Assembly (NCBI GenBank): GCA_963709585.1
Contig: CAVPXI010000006.1
Coordinates: 128,001-192,000, forward strand
Length of the DNA: 64,000 nt
Direction of reading: 5' to 3'
From: Candidatus Dormiibacterota bacterium
Lineage (GTDB): Bacteria > Chloroflexota > Dormibacteria > Aeolococcales > Aeolococcaceae
The notes under the pieces were generated by a model, which was not told the origin of the DNA, did no database searches, and saw only the letters and a list, made by a program, of their open reading frames with translations. A program made the translations under genes and the position numbers. Shown here piece by piece: positions 11,030-32,862 of this stretch (positions are counted from its first letter, which is position 1; every line of letters starts with the position of its first letter).

Positions 11030-11365
11030 TCAGCCGCTCAGCGTGGCGGGCTGGTGGCGCCGGCCCTTTGCGATCGCCACGCTGACCGCGGTCGCCGCGG
11101 CAAGCGTCACCACCACACCTCCGGCGACTGCCTGGACCCTGCGATCGAGTCCGATCGCCCGGATGCGGACGCCGAAACCGGAAGCGTCGACGATCGCCAG
11201 CGCCGCCGAATAGACGTCGGCTCGCTTACCCGGATCGAGCGTCCACCCCGCCAGTGCCCCCCCGACCTCGTCGCCGGTGTCGACCAGCCCGGGAACCTCG
11301 GGAGCTGCGGCGAATGCAGCCATGTTGCCCGCGAGCGCGGCATCGAGGCGATCCTCGATGTTCAT
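11030..11365 (-). CDS. Putative small anti-sigma-like membrane protein
   Basis: MNIEDRLD... 111 aa with a C-terminal TM; ATGA overlap with the ECF sigma stop. Confidence 0.65.
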   Translation of the reverse strand: MNIEDRLDAALAGNMAAFAAAPEVPGLVDTGDEVGGALAGWTLDPGKRADVYSAALAIVDASGFGVRIRAIGLDRRVQAVAGGVVVTLAAATAVSVAIAKGRRHQPATLSG

Positions 11366-16940: not shown

Positions 16941-18308
16941 TCAGCTCAGGTACGGAGCTACGCCTTCGCCCTGCTCGGCGGCGTCCATCATCAACTCGCT
17001 CACCGTGGGGTGCGCGTGAATGATCGAGCCGAGATCGTCCATCGACAAACCGTCACTGATCGCGACACCCACCTCGTGGATGATCTCCACCGCGTGGACT
17101 CCCATGATTGTGGCGCCCACCAGCCGGTCGGTGGCTGTGTCCGCGTAGAGCTGGGCGAGCCCGTCAGGCTCGCCTTCGCCGAGCGCTTTGCCGTTGCCGA
17201 GGTAGCGGGCTTGGCCGAGCTTGAGCTCGATACCGGCGGCGTTCGCTGCCTCTGGGTTCAGGCCAACCATGGCAATTTCTGGATGCGTGTAGATGCAGGA
17301 CGGCACCACGGTTCGGTCCATGGGCATCACGAAGTGACCGAGGGCATTCTCGACGGCGCGGCCGCCTTCTGCGCTGCCGAGGTGCGCCAGTTGCAGGCCA
17401 CCGATACAGTCCCCGGCTCCCCAGATCTTCGGGTTCGCGGTGCGCAAGAATGCGTCCACCTCGATGTGGTCGCGATCGTTGATGCCGACTCCCGCATCCT
17501 CGAGGCCGATCCCGCGGGTTTGCGAGCGACGGCCGACCGAGACGAGCAGCAGATCGGCGTCGATCGCGGTGCCGTCGTCGAGGTGGGCTTTGACGGCGTC
17601 CGTGGCGTAGTCGACTGATTCGACGCGACGCCCGGGAAGGAATGTGATCCCCTGCTTTTCGACGATGCGGCGCCACTGCTGGACGATGCGCGCGTCGACA
17701 CCGGCAAGGACCTGGGGGAGCACCTCGACCACCGTGATCCGCGATCCGAGCGCAGCGAACAGGCTCGCGAATTCGCAGCCGACGACTCCCCCGCCGATCA
17801 CGAGCATGTGGTCGGGGATACGCTCCAGCCGGAGAATCCCGTTGGACGTGACCACGCGGGGATGCTCCATGTCGATGCCGGGCAGCCCCGATGGCTCGGT
17901 GCCGACGCAGACGATGAGGTGATCGAACTCGTGGCGCTCCTCGCCGGTGACCACCGCGTCGCCATCGACCACGCCCTGGGCGCGAACCACTTTCACGCCA
18001 CGCCGCTTGCAGGCAGCCTCGACGCCCTTGCGCATGGTGAGCACGACCTCTTCCTTGCGTTCCATCATCCGCGGGAAATCCACCTCGGGTTCGGGGACGC
18101 GAATGCCGAACGAGGCGGCGTCGCGGATCTTGCGCAGCAAGTCGGCTCCCGCGAGCAACGACTTGGTGGGAATGCACCCCCAGTTCAGGCAGGTTCCGCC
18201 CAACTCGGCGCGTTCGATGAGAGTCACCTCCGCACCCAGTTGCGCGGCGCGAAGCGCGGCGACATCGCCGGCGGGTCCACCGCCGAGCACCACGACGCGC
18301 TGGGTCAT
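16941..18308 (-). CDS. lpdA: Dihydrolipoyl dehydrogenase (E3)
   Basis: GGGPAG, GGTCLNWGCIPTK, GGGVVG, HAHPTVSE. Confidence 0.96.
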   Translation of the reverse strand: MTQRVVVLGGGPAGDVAALRAAQLGAEVTLIERAELGGTCLNWGCIPTKSLLAGADLLRKIRDAASFGIRVPEPEVDFPRMMERKEEVVLTMRKGVEAACKRRGVKVVRAQGVVDGDAVVTGEERHEFDHLIVCVGTEPSGLPGIDMEHPRVVTSNGILRLERIPDHMLVIGGGVVGCEFASLFAALGSRITVVEVLPQVLAGVDARIVQQWRRIVEKQGITFLPGRRVESVDYATDAVKAHLDDGTAIDADLLLVSVGRRSQTRGIGLEDAGVGINDRDHIEVDAFLRTANPKIWGAGDCIGGLQLAHLGSAEGGRAVENALGHFVMPMDRTVVPSCIYTHPEIAMVGLNPEAANAAGIELKLGQARYLGNGKALGEGEPDGLAQLYADTATDRLVGATIMGVHAVEIIHEVGVAISDGLSMDDLGSIIHAHPTVSELMMDAAEQGEGVAPYLS

Positions 18309-21300
18309 GCCGTGGTCTGGGTGGCCGCAGGCGCGGCGGCAAGTGACCCGGTGCCGGCGCGCCGTGACGTGGCGAACGCGTCGGTGACGATGCGTTCCTG
18401 CTCGAGTTGATGAGAGCCCGCGTATCCCTCGGAGGGACTGGCGCGGCGCGACCTGCCGATGTAGTCCCACTGGATGTGCGAGGGTCGTGCAAGACCGAGC
18501 GCGCGCTCGAGGCTCCCCCACGCCCCCATGTTCTGCGGCTCCTCCTGAACCCAGTACAGACGCTCGAGCTTCGGATACGAGGCCACCAGCTCGAGGATTG
18601 CGTCGACCGGTAGCGGGTAGAGTTGCTCAACGCGTGCGATGGCCACGTCGGTGGCGTCCGCGCGTCGCGGCGACAGGATCAGCTCGTAGTAGATCCGGCC
18701 CGAGCAGAGCAGCAGCGAGCGCACCTCCTCGCGACGTTCGTCCCCGGTGGGATCGTCAATCACCGCCAGGAACCTGCCGGTGCTCAGGTCGGAGAGCTTG
18801 GAGGTCGATTCCTTCAGACGCAGCAGGCTCTTCGGCGTGAAGATGACCAGCGGCCGGGGGTCGTTGAGCAGTCCCTGGCTGCGCAACAGGTGGAAATACT
18901 GCGCGGGCGTCGTGCAGTTCGCCAAACGCATGTTGTCGTTCGCGCAGAGTTGCAGGAAGCGCTCGATGCGCGCGCTCGAGTGCTCCGGACCGCTGCCCTC
19001 ATAGCCGTGGGGCAGGAGCATCGTCAACCGTGAGTGCTGACCCCACTTGGCGCGGGCCGATGAGACGAACTGGTCGACGATCATTTCCGCGTTGTTGAAG
19101 AAGTCGCCGTACTGCGCCTCCCAGATGACCAGCGTCTCCGGGTCGGCGGCGCTGTACCCGTACTCGAACCCCAGGCACCCCACCTCGCTGAGCGGGCTGT
19201 TCAGCACCTCGAAGGTCGCCTGCGCATCGGTGAGGTGCTGCATGGGGATGAATACCTCGCCGTTGATCTCGTCGTGAAACGCAAGGTGGCGATGGCTGAA
19301 GGTGCCGCGAACCGTGTCCTGGCCGGTGAGGCGGATCGGATGACCCTGGGTGATGAGCGACGCGAACGCGAGCGCCTCGGCGGTCCCCCAGTCGATCGCG
19401 CCCTCGAGGATCGCCGACTTGCGCCGCTCCATCTGGCGGATCAGCTTGGCGTTGGGTGTGAAGTGCTTGGGGAAGGTGAGCAGCTGTTCGTTGAGCGCGG
19501 CGAGCTGACGGCCCGACACAGCCGTGCGCATCATCGGGTCGTCGGGCTCTTCGATCACCTGCTCGTGGGTGAGGTCGTCGAGCTCGGCGGCGAGGTGTTC
19601 CTTCACCCGCTTGTGCGCGTCCGCGATCCGTCCATAGATCGCTTTGGCCTGCGCTTCGGCGTCTTCGGGTCGGATCAGACCGTCGGCCACCAGTTGCGCG
19701 GCGAACAGCTCGCGGACGGTGGGGTGCTGACGGATCTTCAGGTACATGAGCGGCTGCGTGTACGCGGGTTCGTCGGCCTCGTTGTGGCCGAACCGCCGGT
19801 AGCCGATCAGGTGCACCATGACGTCGCGGCGATACGCCCGCCGGTAGTCGTAGGCGAAGGTGATCGCCGCCAGGCACGCTTCGACATCGTCGGCGTTGAC
19901 GTGCACGATCGGGATGTCGAAGCCCTTGGCCAGGTCGGACGCGTAGCGCGTCGACCGCCCCTCGAGCGGGTTGGTGGTGAAGCCCACCTGGTTGTCGGCG
20001 ATGAAATGCACGGTGCCACCGGTTGTGTATCCCGGGAGCGATTGCAGGTTGAGCACCTCCTGCACGATTCCCTGCCCGGCAAAGGCGGCGTCGCCGTGAA
20101 TCAGCACCGGGAGCGCCGCCATCGGATCGAGATGCAATGTCGTCGCGCGACGCTGAGTTTGCGCCGCCCGGCACCAACCTTCAACGACCGGGTCGATGGC
20201 TTCGAGGTGGCTCGGATTCGGCAGCAGGCGCACCAGGATCACCTTGCCGGTTTCGGTGTGGTATGTCCCGGTCGCGCCGACGTGGTACTTCACGTCGCCG
20301 GTCGAGTCGAAACGTGCGATGGCCCGCCGCGCCGAGGCGAGCTCGAATGCGTTGAGGATCGACTCGTACGAGTGATTGGCGACATGCGCGACCACCGCGA
20401 GGCGGCCGCGATGGGGCATGCCCATGACCACCTCGCCGATACCGTCATCCGCGACCCGGGTCATGAGGGTTTCGAGCATCGGCACGAGCGCGTCGAGTTC
20501 CTTCGAGTGAGAACGTTTTCTGCCCGAGGAACGCCGCGCGCTGGTATCGCTCCATGGTTTCGACCTTGGTGAGGCGCTCGAGGAGGCGGAGGCGGTCCTC
20601 GACCGTGAGCGCCGGCCGGTATTTGCCGGACTCGATGTGCTCACGCAGCCACACGCGCTGTTCATGGCTCGAGATGTGCTCGATCTCGAAGGCGATGGTG
20701 CTGCAGTACGTGCGCCGGAGATTCGGGAGCACCTCGGCCAGGTTGCGACCCGGGACATAGACGCGGAGCAGGTCGGCGGGGATCTGCTCCATCAACTCCT
20801 CGGTCAGGCCGTACGTCGACGGGTCCATCGCAGGATCGCCGATCGGCGGCGAGCCGAGCGGGTCGAGGTGGGCGCCGAGATGACCGTGAGTCCGGTGCGC
20901 CTTGACCAGCGACGTCGCCGCCTGCATCGCCGCGAGCAGGACGCGATCGGGTGCTCCTGCGGCAATCGATGCAGGCGATGCGAGCGGTGGCGAGGGTGGC
21001 GCGGTGGTGCGGAGCGGCGCCACCTCGAGAGCCGGCATGATCAGGCCAAGACTGGCGAAAACACGATCGTAGAAATCGCCGGCGCCGTCGAGCAGGGATT
21101 CGATGCGACCCAGGAACTCGCCGGACTCCGCCCCCTGGATGACTCGGTGGTCATAGGTGCTGGTCACGGTCATCACCTTGCCGACGCCGAGCTCGCGAAT
21201 GCTGTTCTCGGGAACGCCGCGCCACTCCGCGGGATAGCCGATGGCACCGACGGCGACGATCGTCCCCTGACCGGGCATGAGCCGCGGCACCGAGGCCACG

Positions 21301-22415
21301 GTGCCGATGCCACCGGGGTTGGTGAGCGTCAGGGTCGCGCCCTGGAGCTCGTCCGCGGAGAGCGCGTTGGTGCGAGCGCGTTCGATCAATCGCTCGTACT
21401 CGTCGCGGAACTCCTTGAACCCGAGTTCCGAGGCATTCCGGATGACCGGGACGACCAGCGAGCGCGACCCGTCCTTGCGGACGCTGTCCACGGCCAGGCC
21501 GAGGTGCGCTGCTCCGGCCACGCGTGCGGGTTTGCCGTCGTCGGTACGTGCGAAATGGGTCGTCATCGCCGGGCTCGCCTCGGCCGCCTGCGCGATCGCG
21601 TATCCGATCAGGTGGGTGAATGACACCTTGCCCGAGTTGCCACCGGCGGCGAGGGCACTGTTCAGCTGGCGCCGGCGGCTGTCGAGGACGTCGACACCGA
21701 CTGTGCGGAACGACGTCGCCGTCGGGATGTCGCGGCTGCGCTCCATGTAGTCGACCAGCGCCGCGGCCGGACCCCTGATCGGCTCGGCGTGCTCGCCGTC
21801 GACAACGCGCACGCTGGTGTCGTGTCGCGGTCCGCCCGTCCGGGCGACGAGCACATCCCCCTTGGTCACGATCCCGCCCGGGCCCGATCCGGGGACCGCG
21901 TGCAGATCGACGCCGTTTTTCGCGGCCTCGCGCCGCGCGAGCGGCGCGGCATCGACATCCGAGCTGTCCGAGGTGATGGTCGGTCTCGAGGCTACGGGGA
22001 CAGCCGGCGGCGTGGGTGGAGCCTGCGCGGGGGCGGGTTCCGGGACGCTGGGGGCGGGCGCCACAGCCTCGGTCCCAGCCGCTGCGGGCTCGGGCGCCAC
22101 GGCTTCGGTCTCCACCACTGCGGGCTCGGGTGGTGGCGCGGGCGCTGGCGCGGTTGCGGGAACCGCCGCGGGGCCCGGCGCGATGACCGCGAGCGTTGCG
22201 CCGACGGCGACCGTCTCGCCCTCGGCTGCGATGATCTCGGTGAGCCGTCCGGTTGCGGGCGCTGGCACTTCGATGTCGACCTTGTCGGTGGTCACCTCGA
22301 CAACCGGCTCACCCTCGTCGACGCTGTCCCCCACAGCCTTGAGCCAGCGGGACACGATCCCTTCCGAAACCGACTCACCCATCGCCGGGAGGGTCAGCGA
22401 AACAGGGTCAGCCAC
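18305..22415 (-). CDS. kgd: Fused 2-oxoglutarate dehydrogenase: lipoyl + PSBD + E2 acyltransferase + E1 (Kgd/OdhA-like; frameshift near 20500)
   Basis: TDKVD lipoyl motif, GSGPGG PSBD, YDHRVIQGAESG, GMPHRGRL, HGDAAFAGQG, WEAQYGDF, GPEHSSARIERF. Confidence 0.92.
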
Positions 22416-22440
22416 CCTTGAATCGTCTCACCTTCGCTCT

Positions 22441-22986
22441 TCAGCAGTGCGGCTGGCCGTTGACCGCCGGTGAACCAGGGGGAGCGGGGCTGGCGAGCGG
22501 CGGAGGCACCGGAGTTGGCGTGGCGTTCGGAGGCATCGACGGCGCCACCGCGGGCGGGTCGATCAGGGGAGCTCCGAGGGTGGAGTAGCACCCCACCGGC
22601 GGTGTGCAGCCGGTGAGCACGAGCCCCCAGTCCGGTAACTGGGCGAAGCTGGTGCACTGCCAGTCGAGCGCGGTGGTCTGCACGCTGTTGTAGTCGTAGA
22701 CGACGTAGTCGTCGATCCGGCAGTGGTCGTTGGGCGTGATGATGAAGTGCTCGTCGACCGAGTTCGAGAAACCGTTGCCGAGGACGTCCAGCTCCATGCT
22801 CCTGCAGTGCCTGGCGGCCGCCTCGAAGCACGCGACGGCGGGGTCGGCCGAGATCGCCGCGGTATGCGCGGGGTTCGGCATTCCGCATTCGGGGGCGGTC
22901 GGATACCCGCACGAGCTCAGGCTGAGCGCGAGCAGCACCAGTGCCGCCGTCTGGATCATTGCGAGCTTGCGGGCGACTCTCCTCAT
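22441..22986 (-). CDS. Cys-rich lipoprotein with Pro-rich tail
   Basis: Lipobox LSSC after a hydrophobic stretch. Confidence 0.65.
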   Translation of the reverse strand: MRRVARKLAMIQTAALVLLALSLSSCGYPTAPECGMPNPAHTAAISADPAVACFEAAARHCRSMELDVLGNGFSNSVDEHFIITPNDHCRIDDYVVYDYNSVQTTALDWQCTSFAQLPDWGLVLTGCTPPVGCYSTLGAPLIDPPAVAPSMPPNATPTPVPPPLASPAPPGSPAVNGQPHC

Positions 22987-23065
22987 TCGCCGCGAGTTTA
23001 AGGGGCGTGCAGGACCGGCCCGGTGGCCGGATGAGTTCGAGCCGCGGGCGGGAGAGCCGGCATGC

Positions 23066-23350
23066 TCAGCTCGCCTGCGGCTTGTGCCCGTCTCCGGACC
23101 GCCGGCGCCAAGCGGCTCGGAGCCACTGCCGGGTAACCGGGATGAACTCCTCGTCGAGCAGCGCACAGGCGATAAGGACCACGACCGCGCATGCCAAGCC
23201 GATCAAGCCGCTCTGCCAGACCGCGAACGTGGGTCGGCCGCCGGTGCACGACCCGGTGCAGTTGTCGGTGACCTGCGCCGTCGCCAGGCCGAGCAGGATG
23301 CCGACGACGCCACCAACGGCGTAAAGGAGGACCGTCCTGGCCGTGTTCAC
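23066..23350 (-). CDS. Small two-TM membrane protein
   Basis: Two TM helices flanking a CxxxC loop; GTG start. Confidence 0.55.
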   Translation of the reverse strand: MNTARTVLLYAVGGVVGILLGLATAQVTDNCTGSCTGGRPTFAVWQSGLIGLACAVVVLIACALLDEEFIPVTRQWLRAAWRRRSGDGHKPQAS

Positions 23351-23491
23351 GCGATGAATATAGGCGCCGGGTGTTGGGAGAACGGGCGCCGACGCCGCAG
23401 CCGGCGGCACGACGCGGTGGTCCGGCGACGCGGCGACCTACACAAATCCGGGCAATGATATACTTGACGCACCGCGCGAGGGCAGCCCAGA

Positions 23492-23728
23492 ATGGCTGAT
23501 CTTGAAGGTCGCACCATTGACATTCGGGCGTTCGGAGCCATCGGCGACGGTATGGCCGACGACGGCGCGGCCATTGCCGCAGCCTTTGAAGTAGCGTTCG
23601 GAAGTGATCCTCGCGTATCAGGTCCTGCGTCACCTATCCAACCTCCAGGGGGTGACGGATGCGAGCATCCAGACGACTTGCCCCCAATGCGGGGTGGCTC
23701 TGACACTGGCGGAGGCGACGGTCGCTGA
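23492..23728 (+). pseudogene. Fragment resembling the N-terminal cap of pectate-lyase-3/beta-helix proteins
   Basis: IDIRAFGAIGDGMADDGAAIAAAF; no beta-helix body follows. Confidence 0.45.
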
Positions 23729-23942
23729 GGAGCGCGAAGTGACCGTCTACCGTTGCCCCAGAGACAAGGCCATCGTGATGCTGGTCACGCCGACCGGGAT
23801 CGACCCGGTTCCGGGATCGGGCTACCGTATTGGTGCCGAGGTTCTCCGCAATCCTGCGGATATCTATCTGAGCGTCGTCGGATCAGCGAACAAGGTGGGT
23901 TTCCCGGCCTCTCCCCACGCCCTCGACGGCTGGAGCCAGTAG
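23652..23942 (+). CDS. Small Zn-ribbon-like passenger protein
   Basis: CPQC...YRCPRD; G-rich RBS before GTG. Confidence 0.5.
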   Translation: MTDASIQTTCPQCGVALTLAEATVAEEREVTVYRCPRDKAIVMLVTPTGIDPVPGSGYRIGAEVLRNPADIYLSVVGSANKVGFPASPHALDGWSQ

Positions 23943-23957
23943 CAGAATACTAGGTAC

Positions 23958-23986
23958 TTGACACACTGCTCATTAGGTAGTACACT
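23958..23986 (+). promoter_or_regulatory. Sigma70-type promoter of the transposase (probably leaderless)
   Basis: TTGACA-17 nt-TACACT; ATG 6 nt downstream. Confidence 0.7.
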
Positions 23987-23992
23987 CACCTT

Positions 23993-24937
23993 ATGAGTTC
24001 GGAGCGGTTCCCCACCACCCTCCTGGCGGCTGTCAGGTACTTCGAGGACGAGGCTGTGTGCCGCGAGTTCCTCGCAGGGCTGCGCTGGCCGGTCGCCGTG
24101 TCGTGCGTCTTCTGCGGCTCGGAGAAGGTCGGGCACATCGCCACGCGGGCGCTGTGGCGCTGCAAGGACTGCCGTAAGCAGTTCAGCGTCAAGAAGGGGA
24201 CGATCTTCGAGGACTCCCCAATCCCCCTCTCCAAGTGGCTGCCTGCGATCTGGCTCTATTCAGCCGGCAAGAAGGGCCGCAGCTCGCACCAGCTCGCCCG
24301 CGATCTCGGCATCACCCAGAAGTCCGCGTGGTTCATGAGCCACCGCATCCGGCTCGCCATGGAGACGGAATCCTTCGACGCGCCGTTGTCGGGTGAGGTC
24401 GAGGTGGACGAGACCATCATGGGTGGCCACGACCAGAACAAGCACTCCTACCTTCGCCGTGGCACCTGGGGCAAGCAGGTCGGGAAGGTGGCTGTCATGG
24501 GCCTCTTGGAGCGCGGCGGCGACGTGCGGGCGAAGATGGTCCCCTCGCGCACTAGCGCCCGTCTTCAAAAGGAGATCCGTAGCAACGTGGCCCTCGGCTC
24601 CATCCTGTACACCGACGCGTTCGCTTCTTACCGTCACGGGCTCGAAGCCGATTACATCCATGAGGTTATCGACCACTCCGAGGAGTACGTCCGTGGGCGT
24701 GTCCATACCAATGGCATCGAGAACTTTTGGAGCTTGTTCAAGCGCGTGATCTACGGCACCCACCATTCCGTCGAGCCTTTCCACCTTGACCGCTACCTCG
24801 ACGAAACGGTCCTTCGGTTCAACACGCGCAAGATGACCGACGCTGGTCGGTTCTCCCTTACCGCTGCTCGCACGACTGGCCGTCGCATCACCTACAAGCA
24901 ACTCACCGGGAAGCTCGAAGAAGGAGCCATCGCGTGA
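23993..24937 (+). CDS. IS1595-family DDE transposase
   Basis: LRWP..CVFC...CKDCRKQFSVKKGTIFEDS Zn ribbon, VEVDET, YTD, HTNGIENFWS, YLDE..RFN. Confidence 0.96.
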   Translation: MSSERFPTTLLAAVRYFEDEAVCREFLAGLRWPVAVSCVFCGSEKVGHIATRALWRCKDCRKQFSVKKGTIFEDSPIPLSKWLPAIWLYSAGKKGRSSHQLARDLGITQKSAWFMSHRIRLAMETESFDAPLSGEVEVDETIMGGHDQNKHSYLRRGTWGKQVGKVAVMGLLERGGDVRAKMVPSRTSARLQKEIRSNVALGSILYTDAFASYRHGLEADYIHEVIDHSEEYVRGRVHTNGIENFWSLFKRVIYGTHHSVEPFHLDRYLDETVLRFNTRKMTDAGRFSLTAARTTGRRITYKQLTGKLEEGAIA

Positions 24938-25101
24938 GCGCCGCCAAATCGAGGCCGCCTCCATCGCCGCCCGACGAAGGGCAGTTCAGGAGTTTCGTGA
25001 CACGGCTCCTCCGCGTGACCAAGAGCGAAATCGACGCGAAGGAAGCGACACGCAAACGTAGACCGCCGCGCAAGGGCGGTGATAAGGTCAAGCCCGACTA
25101 G
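24934..25101 (+). CDS. Small basic protein translationally coupled to the transposase (55 aa)
   Basis: GTGA overlap and AAGGAG RBS; MSAAKSRPPPSPPDEGQFRSFVTRLLRVTKSEIDAKEATRKRRPPRKGGDKVKPD*. Confidence 0.6.
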   Translation: MSAAKSRPPPSPPDEGQFRSFVTRLLRVTKSEIDAKEATRKRRPPRKGGDKVKPD

Positions 25102-25123
25102 GCTTCGGCCTCGTTTGGAGGGA

Positions 25124-25156
25124 CCCGGGGGGCTAGGCGCAAACCAAACCCCCGGG
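25124..25156. terminator. GC-rich hairpin between convergent IS genes
   Basis: CCCGGGGG...CCCCCGGG; no U-tract. Confidence 0.35.
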
Positions 25157-25272
25157 GCCTTCCTCGTATCTGGACAGATTCGCCGCATCGACCGCCCCGC
25201 GCTCCAGCGGTCTGCGAGCCAGCTAACTCATACGCGGTTCGGTTCTTCCACAGGCATCACATCGCTCCTTTG

Positions 25273-25704
25273 CTAACTCAGGTCTGCGGGCTTGGATAGC
25301 ATCTTGTTCGAGAGCTTCCAGATGCTCGGCGCCCACTGACCGTCGCCCTGGCGTTCTGCTACTAGAACGCTCTGCTTCTGAAGGTCATGGAGCGCTTGAC
25401 GCAAGGTCTCCTTTGACGCCTTGCCCTCCCTGTTGCCCCCGAGCCATCCTCTCTTGAACATCTCATTGGCAAGGTCGCTGAGCAGCCATCCACGATTGCC
25501 GCTCTCGCGAAGAACAGTAACCGCGCCCTCGCGGATGGACGGACGCGCCCCGTTGGTTGTTGGGTTCGCGTACGGGGCAGGCGGTCCCGCGTAGTCCTCC
25601 AAGCCGATTATCAGGTTCTGGATCTTCGCCGCCCGCTCATGCAGCGTGTTCAGCTCAGCTCTCAACTCAGCGAGCGCGATGGTCATATGCTCCGAGGTGG
25701 CCAT
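25273..25704 (-). CDS. Coiled-coil plus putative winged-helix passenger protein
   Basis: N-terminal heptads, then SIREGAVTVLRE..GWLLSDLANEMFKRGW...TLRQAL; AAGGAG upstream. Confidence 0.65.
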   Translation of the reverse strand: MATSEHMTIALAELRAELNTLHERAAKIQNLIIGLEDYAGPPAPYANPTTNGARPSIREGAVTVLRESGNRGWLLSDLANEMFKRGWLGGNREGKASKETLRQALHDLQKQSVLVAERQGDGQWAPSIWKLSNKMLSKPADLS

Positions 25705-25731
25705 TTCCTAACTCCTTGGCTAGAATGGACG

Positions 25732-25806
25732 AGCGCCCCCGTCCGGAGTTCGAACCGGAAACCCCGACCTTCGAAAGCTGGGTCCAGATCCTCTGGCGGG
25801 GGCGCT
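25732..25806 (-). ncRNA. tRNA-like cloverleaf (degenerate tRNA-Arg(TCG)-like) inside the IS
   Basis: 10-bp closing stem AGCGCCCCCG/CGGGGGCGCT, arm CCAGA-GGA-TCTGG, imperfect arm with TTTCGAA loop, T-arm TCCGG-TTCGAACT-CCGGA. Confidence 0.6.
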
Positions 25807-26121
25807 ACACATTCTGAACTCCTCCCTGTGTTCAGCGCAAGGGGGGCTGTAGGGGATACAGGGAACAGGCGTTCTATCACTACCCCCCATATAGCGCGAT
25901 ATGGCCCGAGTCACCCTCCCCCATAAGGGCTTTGGAACCCTACGGTGAATATGGGACTCGACGCGTGCGGTGCCCTCACACGGGTGCGTCAGGCTGAACG
26001 CTGGGGGCCGGGCAACGCCCCGGCGGACGTTCGGGGAATGTACGGCCCGATCGCCAAGAGGGTTTGAGTGGCTCGCCCGGCCCTCCCGATCAGCATAGAC
26101 AGTCGAGGCTTGCCGTGCGGG

Positions 26122-26307
26122 CTAGACCGACCCATATCGTCGGCACTCAGAGCATCGTCGTCGCCCACCCTGGCCTAGCGTCTCCCGGTGATCCTCAAGG
26201 ATCTTCTGCGCTCGCTGGCACTCGCTCCGGTCGTGGTAGACCGCGGTGGCGTCCTTCCCGTAGCGAGGGTTGTCGATGCCCGTGTGAAACGCTGGGAGGA
26301 TCGCCAT
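26122..26307 (-). CDS. Small His/Cys metal-binding passenger protein (61 aa)
   Basis: VYHDRSEC...GQGGRRRCSEC. Confidence 0.55.
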   Translation of the reverse strand: MAILPAFHTGIDNPRYGKDATAVYHDRSECQRAQKILEDHRETLGQGGRRRCSECRRYGSV

Positions 26308-26572
26308 GACCTATATCGAAGCTTTCGGCTTAAAGATCCGCGCGCCGCACCCGACGCACTTGTGAGCAGGGCGTTCCTCGGGCGGGATCAACTCGGCTTG
26401 GTCAAAGTTCAGCGGGATGATCCGCTTGCTTCCGCACCCCGCACAGGTCATCGCTAGGCGCTTAGGGCTACGAACCGCCACAGTGTGAGGACGGTACCGG
26501 GGGAGGGAGTGGCTGTCGGTGCGCTACCGAACCCTAGGAATGGTGTGTCAACTATATCGTTGCCCAAATCCG

Positions 26573-26648
26573 TATACTCTCGAGAAGCCGGGATCCACCC
26601 GGTGCGGCCGGTGGGGCGACTGTCAGAGCGAACCTTTGGAGGTAGCCC
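26573..26648 (+). promoter_or_regulatory. Conserved -10 box and structured 5' leader, copy 1 (upstream half displaced by the IS to 23435-23450)
   Basis: TATACT; CCGGG-ATCCA-CCCGG; CGGCCGG; GGGGCGAC...GGAGGTAGCCC-ATG. Collinear with 31085-31171. Confidence 0.75.
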
Positions 26649-27012
26649 ATGCTTGGTGTTCACCGGTTCCGCGCGCTGGTCGGCGTGGCCGCGGCGGTCG
26701 GCGTCGTGGCCTTCGCCGTCCATGCCGGAGCGCAGAACTCCGACGCCCGGCCGCTATGTGAGTTGGGCACCACCGGCCGTCGCCACCGCGACGCCGGGGG
26801 CGGGCCCGGCACTTCCGATGGCGAGCGCCTCGCCCGCCGCGAACGCCGGACCACTTGGAGGTCTGTCCACGCCGCTCTCGGGGCTGTTCAAGCAGTTGAA
26901 CGCGAACACGGCGGCGACGGCCGGCGGCGAATACTCGGTGCTGCAGGACCTCGAACGCGCCCTCGCGGCTCACATTCAGCAGTTCTTGCATTGGGTCACG
27001 GGCGGACGATGA
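26649..27012 (+). CDS. Hypothetical exported/membrane-anchored protein, about 120 aa (frameshift near 26735)
   Basis: MLGVHRFRALVGVAAAVGVVAFAVHAGAQ joined to ...TPTPGRYVSW...QFLHWVTGGR*; GGAGG RBS. Confidence 0.6.
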
Positions 27013-27036
27013 ACGTCGGGCGGTCAGAATCGAGGG

Positions 27037-28900
27037 GTGCCACCTCCTCTCGTGCCAGGCGAAAAGCGCCGGCCAGACATCCGCAACGTCGCGATCATCG
27101 CGCACGTCGACCACGGCAAGACGACGCTTGTCGACGCCCTGCTCAAGCAATCGCGAGTCTTCGCCGCCCACGAACAGGTCGGCGAGTTGATCATGGATTC
27201 GAACGATCTCGAGAGGGAGAAGGGAATCACGATCCTCGCCAAGACCACTTCGGTTCGCTACAACGGGGTCAAGCTCAACATCATCGACACCCCGGGCCAC
27301 GCCGACTTCGGGGGCGAGGTCGAGCGAAGTCCTTGGGATGGCGGACGGGTGCCTGTTGCTGGTCGACGCCGCCGAGGGCCCGATGCCGCAGACGCGGGTC
27401 GTGCTTCGCCAGGCGCTCGCTCTCGGCCTGCAGCCGATCATCGTGGTCAACAAGATCGACCGCACCAACGCCCAGCCGGCCGAGACGGTCGAGGCCACGC
27501 ACGACCTGCTGCTCGAGCTTGCCAAGGAGTCGTGGCAGCTGGACGCGCCGATCCTCTACACCGACGCTCGCGAGGGCACCGCGACCGCCGACCTCACGCA
27601 CGCGGGCGTCACGCTCGAGCCCCTCCTCGACGCCATCCTCGAGCACGTGCCGCCGCCCCTCGCGGACCCCGACGGCCCCCTGCAGATGCTGGTGAGCAAC
27701 CTCGACCACGACAACTGGAGCGGCCGGCTCGCGCTCGGGCGGATTCAGCGAGGCACCGTGCATCCCGGACAGAGCGTCGTCTCCTGCACGGCGTCGGGTG
27801 CGGGGCGGATCGAACGGATCGCGACGGTGCTCACCGTCGAGGCGCTCCAGCGCCTGTCGGTGGAGTTGGCGTCCGCCGGCGAGATCGTCTACCTCTCTGG
27901 ACTCGCGGCGGTTGCCATCGGCGACACCATCGCCGACGCCGAACATCCCGAGGCTTTGCCGCGCCTCGAGATCGGCGAGCCGACGCTGCGGATGCAGTTC
28001 TCGGTCAACCAGTCACCGCTCGCCGGGCGCGAGGCAACCGTGAGCAGCACGTCACGACAGCTGCGCGCGCGCCTGGAACGGGAGTTGCTGACCAACGTCG
28101 CGTTGCGGGTCGAGGACGGGCCGACCGCCGACATCTTCGACGTGAGCGGACGCGGCGAGTTGCATCTCGCGATCCTCATCGAGACGATGCGCCGCGAGGG
28201 GTATGAGTTCGAGGTGTCGCGACCGGCGGTGATCACCAAGGAGGTCGACGGCGAGCGCGTGGAACCCGTCGAGGATTGCGTCATCGACTGCTCGGCGGAC
28301 GTGGTCGGCGCCATCACCGATGCACTCGGCAGTCGCGGGGCAAAGATGACCGCGATGCGAACCGACGCCGGGGGCGGTGTGCGCCTGACCTACCACGCGC
28401 CAACTCGCGCGCTCATCGGTTTGCGCAGCCAGATCCTCACACTGACACGCGGCACCGGCGTGATGGCGACACGGCTGCTCGGCTGGGAGCGCACCTGGGC
28501 GCTGCCCACGACGACGCGCGGCGGCGTGCTCACCGCGAGCCAACCGGGAACGGCTGTCGCCTACGGGCTGGTGACCCTCCAGGAGCGAGGGCAGCCGCTG
28601 ATCGCGCCGGGCACGCCGGTCTACGAGGGCATGATCGTCGGGCTCAACCGCCGGCCTGGGGACATCCACCTCAACGTGACCAAGCAGAAGCAGAAGACCA
28701 ACATCCGGTCGTCCACCGAGGACATGACCATCCGCCTGGTACCACCACGCAAGATGTCGCTCGAGGAGTGCCTCGACTTCATCATCGACGACGAGCTCGT
28801 CGAGGTCACGCCCGTGGGCATCCGCATGCGCAAGCGCGTGCTCAACGCGGACGAGCGCAACAAGCTCCGTAAGCGCTCGATGGCGACCGAGGCCGGTTAG
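27037..28900 (+). CDS. typA: Translational GTPase TypA/BipA (frameshift near 27328)
   Basis: [63 protein letters not shown]. Confidence 0.95.
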
Positions 28901-28924
28901 CGGAGGCGCCGACCCCTAGGGCGG

Positions 28925-29050
28925 TCAGCGCTCGGCCGGCGACTGCGCGGCGGTCTGAGCGGCGGCCTTCTTCGCCGCCTTGGCGATTGCGGCAGCCTTG
29001 GGCTTCTTGGCGTTGCGCTTCGGGGCTCCGCGGGTCTTCTCACTGGCCAC
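28925..29050 (-). CDS. Small Lys/Ala-rich basic protein (41 aa)
   Basis: AAGGAG 6 nt before GTG at 29050; MASEKTRGAPKRNAKKPKAAAIAKAAKKAAAQTAAQSPAER*. Confidence 0.55.
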   Translation of the reverse strand: MASEKTRGAPKRNAKKPKAAAIAKAAKKAAAQTAAQSPAER

Positions 29051-29326
29051 GGCCGTCTCCTTGTCAGTGTTGTCAGCTGATCCTGAGATTAGAACAAGTT
29101 CTGCTGCGAGCGACTCGAGGCTCGAGATCGAGGTGGCGGCGATGACGTATGGCGGCGGAACCCCGAAGATCCCGCGCTCGCTGAGCAACTTGATCGGCAC
29201 CGCGACAGCGCCGCTCGGGACCGTGGCAGGAGTGTACGTGGGCATCGGGTAGCAACCGGCAATGAGCGCGCCGAACCCAAATGCTGTCGCGATCCAGGCG
29301 ATGCTGCGCGCCACGGTCTCCATCAC
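29051..29326 (-). pseudogene. Lipoprotein-like N-terminal segment, in frame with the small basic ORF
   Basis: Lipobox IAGC; reads through an AT-rich stretch into 28925..29050. Confidence 0.35.
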
Positions 29327-29372
29327 TGCTCGCTACGCGCCCGGCCCCGGTAGGTTCCGGCGCACTCCCGAA

Positions 29373-30380
29373 TCAGGAGAACAGCGAGCTGTACCCGTTG
29401 AGCGCCGGCTGGCCACCGAGATGGGCGTAGAGCACCTTCGACCTGGGGTCGATCTCATTGCGCGAGATCATGTCGATCATGCCCGCCAGTGACTTGCCCT
29501 CGTACACGGGGTCGGTGATCATCCCTTCCAGCCGCGCGCCAAGCCGGATTGCATCGACAGTCCGCTGGTCCGCGAGCCCGTACGTCCCGGCGTGATAGCG
29601 AGCGTCAAGCACGATTTCGTCGCTGCGCAGGTTACGGCCGATCTCTATCAGCTCGGCAGTCTGTCGAGCAATCCGGGTGATCTGGTCGAGAGTTTCCTCG
29701 GGCTTCGCGGACGCGTCGATGCCGATCACCCGTCGCGGTCGCGCCTGGGCCGCGAAACCGGCGATCATTCCCGCCTGCGTGCTTCCCGTGACCGAGCACA
29801 CGATGACGGTGTCGAAGAAGACGCCAAGCTCTCGCTCCTGATCCTCCACTTCCTGCGCCCATCGGGCGAATCCCAGACCCCCAAGTGGATGATCGGACGC
29901 GCCGGCTGGTATCGGGTACGGCTTACCGCCTGCTGCTTCGACCTCGGCAAGCGCCTGCTCCCAGCTCGCTTTGAAACCGATGCCGAACCCCTCCTTCACC
30001 ATTCTGATGTCCGCGCTGAGGATGCGACTCAGCAGGATATTGCCAACCTTGTCATAGACCGAATCGTGCCAGTCGACCCAGCTCTCCTGGACGAGGACGC
30101 AGCGCAAACCGGAATGTGCGGCCACCGCGGCAACCTGACGAGTGTGGTTGGACTGAACACCGCCGATGGAGACCAGCGTGTCGCAGCCCTGGGCGATGGC
30201 ATCGGCGACCAGGTACTCGAGTTTTCTGGTCTTGTTGCCTCCGAACGCCAGTCCGCTGTTGCAATCCTCGCGCTTTGCCCACACCTCGGCGCCGCCCAGC
30301 GACCTGGTGAGTCGTTCCAGCGGATGCACCGGAGACGGACCGAACAGCAACGGCTGGCGAGCGAAGGCAGCGAGCTTCAT
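29373..30380 (-). CDS. acdS: 1-aminocyclopropane-1-carboxylate deaminase
   Basis: [37 protein letters not shown] and HLGG (the Glu/Leu pair that distinguishes ACC deaminase from D-cysteine desulfhydrase). Confidence 0.95.
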
Positions 30381-30445
30381 GAGCCTCCAGGAGAGCCGAC
30401 GGCTGCGAGTCTATAGTTTGACGACGCAGCGAGAGGGCGGGCCGT

Positions 30446-31048
30446 ATGCTCGGCGTCGTGGCCATAGCCGTGCGGCCGGCGACCGCGGATCGGTGGAGCG
30501 ACCTCGTCACGGTCTTCGGTCGGCGTGGCGAAGATCCTTCATGGTGCTGGTGTCAGCGCTTCCTCAACCCGGAACGTCAGAACTCCTCAGCCGCAGGAGC
30601 GGCACCGCACAATCGCGACGCGTTGTACCAGGAGATCACCCATGCTGCGGCACCGCCGGGGCTCATCGCCTATGTCGGTGATCATCCAGTCGGATGGACC
30701 AGAGTAGGACTCCGCTCTGCGTTTCCAGGGGTACGCGGCAACAGGGCTCTCGCAAGAGTGCTCAATGAGGATGACGCCGGAGTTTGGTGGGTGACGTGCA
30801 TCGTGGTCGACGGCCGGCACCGTCGATCCGGGGTCGGATTGGCCCTCCTGCGAGCCGCAGTCGAATTCGCCCGCGACCACGGTGCGACTGCGGTCGAGGG
30901 ACATCCAGTCGATGTCGCCGCCCTCAAGGCCGCACGAGTGGCAGGATCCGCCATCTACACCGGAACCGTGGCGATGTTCGTCGCCGCGGGTTTCGTCGAG
31001 GTCGCTCGCACGTATCCCACCCGGCCGGTGATGCGGCTCTTGATGTGA
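30446..31048 (+). CDS. GNAT family N-acetyltransferase
   Basis: CWC, PVGW, HRRSGVGLALL, VEGHPVD, FVAAGF. Confidence 0.9.
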   Translation: MLGVVAIAVRPATADRWSDLVTVFGRRGEDPSWCWCQRFLNPERQNSSAAGAAPHNRDALYQEITHAAAPPGLIAYVGDHPVGWTRVGLRSAFPGVRGNRALARVLNEDDAGVWWVTCIVVDGRHRRSGVGLALLRAAVEFARDHGATAVEGHPVDVAALKAARVAGSAIYTGTVAMFVAAGFVEVARTYPTRPVMRLLM

Positions 31049-31062
31049 ACGTCGGACGACAC

Positions 31063-31171
31063 TTGACAGACATACACAAATCCGTATAGTCTGCTCGCTG
31101 TCCGGGTACTCACCCGGAACGGCCGGAGGGGCGACCGATCACCGAACGACGTCTATCGGAGGTCGCCCATC
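31063..31171 (+). promoter_or_regulatory. Conserved sigma70-type promoter and structured 5' leader, copy 2
   Basis: TTGACA (31063)-16 nt-TATAGT; TCCGGG-TACTCA-CCCGGA; CGGCCGG; GGGCGACC/GGTCGCCC stem overlapping the GGAGG SD. Confidence 0.8.
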
Positions 31172-31411
31172 GTGGTTCAACTCAAGGCACTGATCGATAA
31201 CTGGATCCTCATCGCGCAGGGCCTGCTCGCGAGCGTCGGCGCGCTGGCGTTCCTGATCGCGTTCATGTACAAGATCGTGGCCGTCGACCCCGCCAGTGTC
31301 GCCCAGGCGAAGAAATGGATCGGCCGCATCGTCTTCGGAACGATCGGCGTCGAAGTGGCAGGCACGCTGACCCACGCGCTTATCGCCAGCGTCCCAGCCA
31401 CGATTCACTGA
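31172..31411 (+). CDS. Pilin-like (TrbC/VirB2-type) small two-helix membrane protein
   Basis: 79 aa; TM-loop-'AQAKKWIGRIVFG'-TM pattern; precedes a VirB6-like gene. Confidence 0.65.
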   Translation: MVQLKALIDNWILIAQGLLASVGALAFLIAFMYKIVAVDPASVAQAKKWIGRIVFGTIGVEVAGTLTHALIASVPATIH

Positions 31412-31416
31412 GCGGG

Positions 31417-32358
31417 ATGCAGTCGCTCCCTGGAATCGTGCAGGGGATCCGTGATCCCCTCGGCTCGATCCTCCAACTGCTGACCGGCGTGCTGTCGCAC
31501 TTCATCGCGACCGCGCGTGCCGACCTCAACTCTGAGCTCGGTCGCTATCTGTTCACGACCGTCGACCCGACGGGCGGAGGCACCCGCGCATTGACGGCCA
31601 ACCCGGTGATCGCCCATCTGAACGGCTCGATCGCGCTGGTCGCGGACGTGCTCGTCGGCGCCGTCGTGCTCTATGCCTCGCTGCGGAGCATCTTCGAGCA
31701 CTCGATTCGCGCGCGCTACGCGCTCCATCTCGTGATCCCGCGCGTCATGGCGGCGATCGTGCTGGTGCATGGATCGATCTATTTCGTCCAGATGGCTGTC
31801 GACCTGAACAATGCCATCGGCGGCGTGGCCGAGTCGCTTGGCGGCCCCTTGACCATCGACACGCTTCCGTGGTCGGGGTCGATGAGCGCGGCGACAGTGT
31901 CGATCATCCAGGGCTCGCAGGACCTGTTCCACGCGGTCTTCGCGCTCGGCGTTGTCGTCGCGGTGGTGATCCTCGTGCTCTCCTACGTCATCCGCACGGC
32001 GATGCTGGACATCCTCGTCGTGCTCGCCCCGCTGGCGGCGTTGTGCTCGGCGCTGCCGGACACACGCCGCTATGCCGCCACGTGGCTCCGTCTGTTCATG
32101 GTTGCCGTATTCATGCAGTCCATCCAATTGATCATTCTGCGGGTCGCGATGTCGGTCGGCTTCGGTACCGGGAGCGGTATCGCCGAGAGTCTGTTCGCGC
32201 TGGCGATACTCTGGATCGTTCTCAAGGTACCGGGAACGCTGCATGCGGCAACCCACGTCGAAACCAAGGCGCACACAGCGATGCGGCATGTGCAACGGTC
32301 GATGCACAGGGCGCTGGCGCCGGCACATCACGTCGTGCGCCACCGGACCGCGCTGTGA
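31417..32358 (+). CDS. VirB6/TrbL-like polytopic membrane protein
   Basis: IPRVMAAIVLVHGS..VDLNNA, YVIRTAMLDILVVLAPLAALCSALPDT..ATW, LKVP. Confidence 0.75.
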   Translation: MQSLPGIVQGIRDPLGSILQLLTGVLSHFIATARADLNSELGRYLFTTVDPTGGGTRALTANPVIAHLNGSIALVADVLVGAVVLYASLRSIFEHSIRARYALHLVIPRVMAAIVLVHGSIYFVQMAVDLNNAIGGVAESLGGPLTIDTLPWSGSMSAATVSIIQGSQDLFHAVFALGVVVAVVILVLSYVIRTAMLDILVVLAPLAALCSALPDTRRYAATWLRLFMVAVFMQSIQLIILRVAMSVGFGTGSGIAESLFALAILWIVLKVPGTLHAATHVETKAHTAMRHVQRSMHRALAPAHHVVRHRTAL

Positions 32359-32862
32359 TTCGCGCTTTCGCGGCACTCACCGCGGTGATCGCCGTCGGCC
32401 TCGGCGGCGGCACTGCTCTCGCGAGCGGTGCGAGCAGTGAGGCGGCAGGCGTTGCGTTCGTCAAACCGCTGACCCACGCATGGATCTCGCAGGGGTTCGG
32501 ATGCACGAGCTTCGCGTTCGAACCCGTCGACCGCGCGTGTGCCGGTGGGCACTGGCACTCGGGGATCGATCTGGCAGCGGCCCGCGGCACTCCGGTGATG
32601 GCAACGCTCCCCGGCATCGTCACGGTCATCGTGTCGCCAACGGCATACGGGCTCCACGTGGTCATCGATCACGGCGGCGGATCTGAGCAGCCTCTACGGT
32701 CACCTGGACACGGTGGTGGTCGCCAGTGGCGACGTCGTCGCCGCCGGCCAGGTGATCGGAACCGTCGGATCGACCGGCAACGCGACCGGACCGCATCTGC
32801 ACTTCGAGATCCGGCGCGATGGGATCGCCGAGGATCCGCGCCTGGACCTCGCGCTCCCGTGA
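32355..32862 (+). CDS. Secreted M23 metallopeptidase (frameshift near 32682)
   Basis: Signal peptide, HSGIDLA, YGHL, GSTGNATGPHLHFEIR. Confidence 0.88.

Follow-up and report, generated by a model that had tools for sequence, protein, structure and literature searches.

A conserved promoter and Shine-Dalgarno-pairing leader before two neighbouring envelope-gene units in one Dormibacteria family: a candidate operator and a candidate two-state fold

Several described kinds of bacterial leader hold translation back by burying the Shine-Dalgarno (SD) sequence, and the closest of them share features with a promoter-leader module that occurs twice in a 64,000-nucleotide (nt) stretch of a Candidatus Dormiibacterota genome (contig CAVPXI010000006.1; the whole stretch is called the window below). 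In translational riboswitch platforms, such as the thiamine pyrophosphate riboswitch of Escherichia coli thiM, the SD is buried by a helix, one arm of which can also form a second, mutually exclusive helix further upstream; these platforms also lie in the 5' untranslated region (UTR) and do without a terminator. The module's leader has all of these features, but it is only about 75 nt long, has no evident aptamer and no match in Rfam, and the helices and the SD account for every conserved base in it. In anti-antisense leaders of the rpoS type and in leaders bound by CsrA, self-inhibition by SD pairing is again found, and the module too has an arm on which a partner might dock. The RNA thermometers ROSE and fourU likewise occlude the SD in a 5' UTR hairpin. 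At the level of the promoter, the closest systems are those with an operator in the spacer, where repressors bind or where activators of the MerR type act on long spacers. Here the likeness lies in a 16-base-pair (bp) palindrome between the -35 and the -10 and in a spacer of 18 nt across genera; the module differs in that the position of its palindrome against the -35 varies by 4 nt and in that no conserved regulator gene lies alongside.

How might such a module work? We propose two layers of control, duplicated before two neighbouring envelope-gene units in one Dormibacteria family. In the first, transcription would be governed by a putative dimeric protein, likely a repressor, that binds the spacer palindrome of a sigma-70-type promoter. 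In the second, translation would depend on the fold of the leader of about 75 nt, in which a hairpin, P1, stands only a few bases from the predicted 5' end. In the resting, OFF state a helix of 8-9 bp would bury the SD together with an inner stem; in the ON state CGACC, in the 5' arm of that helix, would pair instead with GGCCG upstream, and the resulting 5-bp hairpin, with a GAGGGG loop, would leave the SD free. We think it probable, though we stop short of confidence, that a real promoter-operator and a two-state, SD-occluding leader make up the module. Its sequence is conserved, P1 and both of the competing helices covary, and it is regularly associated with particular genes.

Layout and distribution of the module

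An initial annotation, made from the sequence by itself, had proposed two collinear copies, and reading and alignment of the three stretches concerned find both where it had placed them. All features of the two copies lie on the forward strand. Copy B begins with a promoter (31063-31092) made of a -35 TTGACA (31063-31068), the operator TACACAAATCCGTATA (31073-31088) and a -10 TATAGT (31085-31090). TTGACA and TATAGT, 16 nt apart, match 11 of 12 positions in a promoter scan that gave one such site against 0.2 in shuffles; an alternative -10, TAGTCT (31087-31092), gives a spacer of 18 nt, the register that is kept in other genera. With hexamers at 16-18 nt and a palindrome between them, the sequence has the layout of a sigma-70-type promoter with a spacer operator. 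The leader (31093-31174) includes P1 (31101-31118), in which TCCGGG (31101-31106) pairs with CCCGGA (31113-31118), and goes on to an 18-nt core, CGGCCGGAGGGGCGACCG (31120-31137). The core holds the competing hairpin, with GGCCG at 31121-31125, the loop GAGGGG and CGACC at 31132-31136, and it also holds the 5' arm of the sequestering helix, GGGCGACC (31129-31136), whose 3' arm is GGTCGCCC (31161-31168). An inner stem (31142-31145 with 31156-31159) lies within a variable stretch, the SD, GGAGG (31158-31162), is carried by CGGAGGTCGCCC, and the gene starts with GTG at 31172.

Copy A is a single unit split by an insertion of 3,114 bp, as the initial annotation had correctly assumed when it joined 23435-23450 to the part further right. 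The left piece of its promoter, 23435-23450, consists of GACC, the left operator half TACA and a first CAAATCCG (23443-23450). The right part (26565-26651) resumes with a second CAAATCCG (26565-26572), which is followed by a -10 TATACT/TACTCT (26573-26580), P1 (26587-26603), the core CGGCCGGTGGGGCGACTG (26605-26622), an inner stem (26623-26628 with 26634-26639), the SD GGAGG (26638-26642), the 3' arm of the sequestering helix (26641-26648) and an ATG at 26649. The suggestion that the start codon stands at the shared GCCCAT needs a correction for copy B, whose GTG lies three bases past CCCAT.

Taken alone, the resemblance between A and B is weak (78% identity over 59 nt, E 1.7e-4). From 40 loci of relatives, 29 B-type and 21 A-type copies were aligned, and a covariance model was built from these 50 copies of the genus. 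In the whole genome of the window, which is 89% complete, the model gives B 87.2 bits (E 1.8e-20), A 66.4 bits (E 1.1e-14) and no further match at E<=0.01. When BLAST was used as well as the model, the only addition to A and B in this genome was a degenerate relic (contig C7, 524697-524761), which is 87% identical to B over the promoter and P1 only and then diverges and meets a convergent gene at its 3' end; the relic has no gene of its own and goes undetected by the covariance model. The B leaders are 85, 88, 89, 90 or 91 nt long, and as these lengths differ by numbers that are not multiples of 3, the leader is not coding. A scan found no terminator-like site 3' of the leader.

How widely is the module distributed? 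When copy B was compared by BLAST with 60 relatives, it was found at 84-97% identity in all 36 genomes of the genus, with a second, weaker copy a few kb off on the same strand. In 29 of 29 B-type copies from the genus, the stretch from CTTGACA to the leader and core is invariant or nearly so, and the flank upstream of the -35 is unalignable; an invariant promoter and leader beside an unconserved flank bear the mark of selection on the promoter and leader themselves. The covariance model matches every one of 42 genus genomes (35 with two matches, two with one and five with three). In the order sample it matches 73 of 106 genomes, and 14 of 22 genera, of the module's family, f1 (families, genera, genomes and loci carry our own codes, f, g, G and L), and none of the 44 genomes of the sister family, f2. 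Matches in a phylum-wide sample of 151 were confined to f1, apart from one marginal match (E 8.6e-4). Some of these tallies include unpublished genomes (G039, G044, G048, G056, G073, G076, G105 and G119), and no sequence-level claim rests solely on them.

B is always upstream of a gene for a pilin-like protein of 79 amino acids (aa), and this gene allows more diverged leaders to be located. Leaders on the same plan stand upstream of it in six genera (g11, g12, g13, g16, g17 and g19), of which g11 and g13 give no match to the model and the other four none or a marginal one (E 0.002-0.008). In g8 and in f2, the leaders upstream of the pilin-like gene are unrelated. The f2 leader (L097-L106) is about 80 nt long; in the f2 genus g3 an upstream CCCCAG can pair with CUGGGGG at the ribosome site, and in four of five f2 leaders tried the fold was not better than shuffles. 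In g12 (L111, L112) the start codon of the leader opens a frame of about 20 codons, which in L112 ends 4 nt before the pilin ATG; to judge from its position, this short frame may be an upstream open reading frame that couples leader and gene.

After the 79-aa gene comes a TrbL_4 (VirB6-like) gene and then a gene for an M23 or CHAP hydrolase. A is upstream of a gene for an exported protein of about 120 aa, which in the window's genus is followed by typA. All 28 matches of the model outside the genus precede the 79-aa gene or the exported-protein gene, counting three before truncated or frameshifted copies of the 79-aa gene (L078, L080 and L085) and one before a more distant secreted protein of 110 aa (L088). 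A and B are 3.3-7.6 kb apart on one strand (20 loci), but only 0.9 kb apart in g18 (L073), where the A unit stands directly before the B unit; in the window's genus they are separated by typA and two or three further genes. A and B belong to a single locus, as neighbouring units, and do not form a dispersed regulon. The regulon that had been envisaged at first finds no support: 35 of the 42 genus genomes have exactly two matches, and the A and B matches lie close together on one strand in the loci compared. The two downstream proteins are indeed unrelated in sequence, as had been remarked, but their genes are syntenic neighbours across the family. Scanning relatives with a covariance model, as the initial annotation had advised, did turn up more copies and covariation, but none of the copies is upstream of the VirB4 or VirD4 genes that it had anticipated. 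No VirB4 or VirD4 gene adjoins the module, and AAA_10 gave only marginal matches elsewhere in the window's genome; of a type IV secretion or conjugation gene set, only the pilin-like, TrbL_4 and M23/CHAP genes are found 3' of the leader. At L087 (4385-7128; genome G066, genus g7), genes for AAA_10/TraG-like P-loop and EccE-like proteins lie directly upstream of the B leader on the same strand, and this is the only locus at which we have seen a secretion ATPase beside the module.

Pairing in the leader and its readings

The pairing first pointed out, GGGCGAC with GT(C/A)GCCC over the SD, belongs to the minimum-energy fold of both copies, and it has the support of covariation. RNAalifold, run on the 50 genus copies, returns P1 and the SD helix. 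Pairs were counted in an alignment of 74 distinct leaders from 12 genera, whose columns supply the positions given below. In P1, 97% of the cells are paired and four of the six pairs have double changes; pair 20-39, for example, is GC in 23 leaders, UA in 22, CG in nine, UG in seven, GU in four and AU in three. As a control, the partners were slid by 1-3 columns, and pairing then stood at 35-57%. In the sequestering helix 94% of the cells are paired, pair 56-99 being A-U in 66 leaders and G-C in three. A pattern scan across 117 genomes of the family was matched in 83 of them, against four matches for the reversed control, and 14 of the 15 cores with G56 have GGAGGC opposite.

The competing hairpin, GGCCG-GAGGGG-CGACC, pairs columns 43-47 with 54-58 and so shares the 5' arm of the sequestering helix. 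Alternative pairing had been suspected from the repeated blocks in the leader, and covariation of this hairpin supports the suspicion. Among the 74 leaders pair 47-54 is G-C in 70, A-U in four and broken in none; at 45-56, 66 leaders have a C.A mismatch, four have C-G and four U-A, with no other combination. The leader of G072 (CGGCCAGAGGGGTGGCC ... GGCCACCCC) is perfect in both helices, and in diverged genera A44-U57 is seen in L108 and U45.G56 in L115. The comparative pairing data thus describe mutually exclusive helices of the kind that, in riboswitches, couple a sensor to the SD. In g15, whose variant is also present in G115, G137 and G149, three core positions distinguish the A leader from the B leader within one genome, and the helices are preserved in both, which points to pairing in cis rather than with a shared partner in trans. 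The near invariance of the 18-nt core requires no ligand, since each of two partners must find its pairs in positions 54-58, and the fixed SD holds one of those partners in place. We infer that the two helices may act as a switch.

A number of points weigh against a two-state leader under an operator. Because the alignment was fitted to P1 and the sequestering helix as the model has them, the pair counts for these two are inflated, and the z-scores of single-sequence folds are unremarkable (-0.5 to -2.4), the folds being not clearly better than shuffles. The C.A mismatch sits in the competing hairpin of 66 of the 74 leaders, and in the family-wide pattern scan pair 47-54 is broken in two copies, those of G146 (C.U) and G083 (G.A). 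The lineages that contribute the A-U, U-A and C-G variants are few (g15, g18, g12, g14/g17/g22, g7, g11 and g16), with perhaps some 5-8 independent events behind them. Forcing the competing hairpin costs a median of 10.75 kcal/mol (3.4-21.6) over the minimum-energy fold in the 74 leaders; as the closed fold wins by this much, the open form would need help or would act only during transcription. A-type copies are variable at loop positions 49-50 (GTGGGG, GATGGG, GAAGGG), which argues against a ligand pocket based on the loop. On the side of the promoter, the start of transcription was placed by sequence prediction, four public runs of RNA or possible RNA having supplied contigs only (at 88% likeness or more), and no regulator gene conserved beside the units was found, the upstream genes differing between genera.

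Might the leader be static? P1 would then protect the 5' end, the SD helix would keep translation of the membrane proteins low, and all regulation would take place at the operator. An SD-like GGAGG lies exposed in the linker of nearly all B copies, and on this view it may be a standby site for the ribosome. The energy by which the sequestered fold is favoured agrees with this idea, as does the lack of any sign of a ligand pocket, the P1 loops and the region inside the helix varying freely; the invariance of the core, moreover, is accounted for by pairing to the fixed SD. We find it doubtful nevertheless, because position 47, which is outside the sequestering helix, changes from G to A together with C54 to U in four of the 74 leaders with no pair broken, and the same change at 47 and 54 is found again in further genomes of g15, g18 and g12. 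Position 45, in turn, changes only towards pairing with 56. A static leader predicts neither pattern.

It is quite unlikely, in our estimate, that the leader is a ligand riboswitch in which P1 and the core form an aptamer and a small molecule turns translation on by stabilising the competing hairpin. One would expect of a riboswitch the 18-nt core that is nearly invariant across genera, the two mutually exclusive helices and the 5' UTR position before two unrelated genes, and no Rfam family claims the element. The initial annotation did not recognise a known family, and the searches agree: with Rfam 15 only a tRNA passes the gathering threshold in the window, and in E-value scans of the two leaders the only family to come up is Guanidine-III, for B, whose 16.9 bits on the opposite strand (E 0.18) fall short of the threshold of 36, and A has no match. 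But the element is very small, each conserved base is explained by the helices or the SD, and the loop varies in A-type copies. No conserved unpaired bases resembling a pocket were seen, as the P1 loop, the inner region and loop positions 49-50 all vary. Genes for pilin-like, TrbL-like, hydrolase and exported proteins suggest no metabolite, and the element is confined to one family.

Gating in trans, whether by a small RNA on the 5' arm in the anti-antisense manner of rpoS or by a CsrA-like protein on the GGA loop and the SD, we regard as extremely unlikely. The conserved, partly single-stranded core could serve as a docking site, and there are two CGGAGG motifs about 35 nt apart, one in the hairpin loop and one at the SD. 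Against an RNA partner, the 18-nt core has no antisense match at <=2 mismatches in the window's genome, and no conserved antisense partner of at least 12 nt was found in the 42 genus genomes, shorter or imperfect pairing being outside the search. In many of the 42, including G003, G008, G012, G014, G016, G017, G021 and G035, the 12-nt complements are only the leaders themselves, and further sites across the 42 are as frequent as with the reversed-pattern control. Against a CsrA-like protein, the module has GGA in most copies, but the B copies of g15 lose it (CAGAGGGG), and at three core positions they do not agree with the A copy of their own genome; CsrA (PF02599) was not found in the window's genome, at 89% completeness. 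An RNA thermometer is rejected, as 8-9 mostly G-C pairs with an inner stem, whole-leader folds of -25 to -46 kcal/mol and the median opening cost already given make the leader far too stable to melt physiologically.

The spacer palindrome and insertions of the IS1595 family

A 16-bp palindrome, TACACA-N4-TGTGTA (for example TACACAAGTCTGTGTA), is present in the promoter spacer family-wide. Among 78 distinct sequences upstream of leaders it has at most two mismatches in 69 and at most four in 76; the control windows, 300 nt upstream, have 4-8 mismatches, and one of 78 comes within four. The TAC-N8-GTA operator named in the initial annotation turns out to be a degenerate local form of this palindrome. 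The palindrome lies between the -35 and the -10, overlapping or touching the -10, and its shift of 4 nt relative to the -35 is a shift between genera. Judging by this arrangement, the protein bound would most likely be a dimeric DNA-binding protein, a repressor; contact between the palindrome and the -10 is read most simply in that way, and a MerR-like activator might bind there instead. A scan for the operator across the window's genome gave 13 sites against 23 in the reversed control, so there is no enrichment. One look-alike of the promoter (contig C23, 178736-178790), with TGACAG, TACACATAGATGTGGT and TATAGA, stands directly before a gene for a TlyA-like rRNA methyltransferase; it is a single site with two mismatches, and it may be there by chance.

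In copy A, the palindrome is interrupted. The interruption (23451-26564, forward strand) is an element of the IS1595 family of insertion sequences (IS) that has entered halfway along the operator and duplicated 8 bp of its target. G033, the closest relative, has the two flanks (22005-23450 and 26565-29097 of the window) joined in one stretch, with an overlap of just the 8 bp CAAATCCG, which makes 23451-26564 an insertion. It is present in one copy in the assembly (BLAST), its inverted ends (23451-23472 and 26543-26564) match at 19 of 22 positions, and its transposase (23993-24937) matches the Pfam families DDE_Tnp_IS1595 (E 4.6e-38) and Zn_ribbon_IS1595 (E 1.3e-11). The DDE transposase with its zinc ribbon, the terminal inverted repeats and the 8-bp duplication are those of the IS1595 family, and G033 supplies the empty site.

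Three unlike elements of the family, 3,114, 2,707 and 3,763 bp long, stand in three genomes at the identical 8 bp, CAAATCCG, at the centre of the palindrome: at 23443-26572 in the window, at 2739-5461 of L077 (G142) and at 12171-15949 of contig C7 of G015 (L117). An A-type promoter holds the first, and B-type promoters hold the other two. For all three, both junctions are present together with the 8-bp duplication; blastn finds no similarity between the window's element and either of the others. In addition, L079 (G129) has a right junction only and G015 has an additional left junction at 11365; an exact junction in G119 was not used. As far as these sequences tell, this looks like site-specific targeting of the operator. 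Such a site preference is not known to us from the IS1595 family, no search for one having been made. A bolder view would join the two subjects: a very small new riboswitch or protein-gated switch would sense an envelope or growth signal and control a pilin/VirB6/hydrolase module, and the operator would also be a preferred landing site through which mobile DNA of the IS1595 family repeatedly rewires the operon. Taken as a whole, that view is unlikely.

Neighbouring genes and the biology of the Dormibacteria

The genes downstream of both copies in the window are on the forward strand. Downstream of A, 26649-27012 encodes the exported protein of about 120 aa, which is signal-anchored, has a Pro/Ala-rich middle and has no Pfam or NCBIfam match; an extra base at 26736 relative to G033 puts it out of frame after about codon 29, and, read in another frame, residues 31-120 share 96.7% identity with G033. 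The next gene, typA/bipA (27037-28900), is single-copy in the genome and is split into two frames by an extra base at 27327; the call rests on Pfam and on TIGR01394 (E 7e-244 on the orthologue in G003). Downstream of B, 31172-31411 encodes the 79-aa protein, a pilin-like membrane protein with two helices. It is extremely conserved, and of its 252 homologues those with source names are from Dormibacteraeota. The gene is single-copy and is present in 95 of 106 f1 genomes and 42 of 44 f2 genomes, that is, in 137 of the 150 sampled in the order. It has no Pfam or NCBIfam match, and its language-model likeness to TrbC/VirB2 pilin clusters (0.89-0.93) is a lead only. There follow a TrbL/VirB6-like polytopic membrane protein (31417-32358; Pfam TrbL_4, E 7.5e-10), the only copy in the genome and 69% identical over 31417-32346 to its orthologue in G088, and an M23 peptidoglycan hydrolase (32373-32862), split into two frames near 32683.

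Are these frameshifts biological? A one-base shift also splits the gene for a fused 2-oxoglutarate dehydrogenase (E2-E1) at about 20510, and relative to relatives the four shifts, at 26736, 27327, about 32683 and about 20510, amount to about one per 3.5 kb. Contigs from other sequencing runs are without the extra base at 27327 and without one base at 32683. The four are probably indel errors of the assembly. Pseudogenisation of the A operon after the IS had struck was considered and dropped, since the same one-base shifts occur in the M23 and 2-oxoglutarate dehydrogenase genes, which makes assembly error simpler than gene decay. The fused dehydrogenase gene (1,328-1,448 aa) regularly precedes the A-type unit on the opposite strand, in L072, L073, L084 and L090 and at 18305-22415 in the window. 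In four genera, the window's genus not among them, a protein of about 145 aa belonging to no known family (DGYG..RLLED.RTLSPAGIER) is encoded divergently from the A promoter.

What does the module mean for its hosts? The Dormibacterota are abundant in soils and uncultured, and we know of no work on their gene regulation; a literature search found no published study linking Dormibacter with a riboswitch or with TrbL. Occlusion of the SD with a competing helix is a textbook principle, and the value of the module lies in a new family and in a handle on a little-understood system, not in a new mechanism. It offers a defined promoter architecture for the Dormibacterota, a candidate operator that could be used as bait for its regulator, and a compact structured leader with comparative support that could join the RNA family databases. 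The stripped-down pilin/VirB6/hydrolase set that follows the B leader, single-copy and so widely kept in the order, suggests a secretion-like machine that has become domesticated and plays a core part in the envelope.

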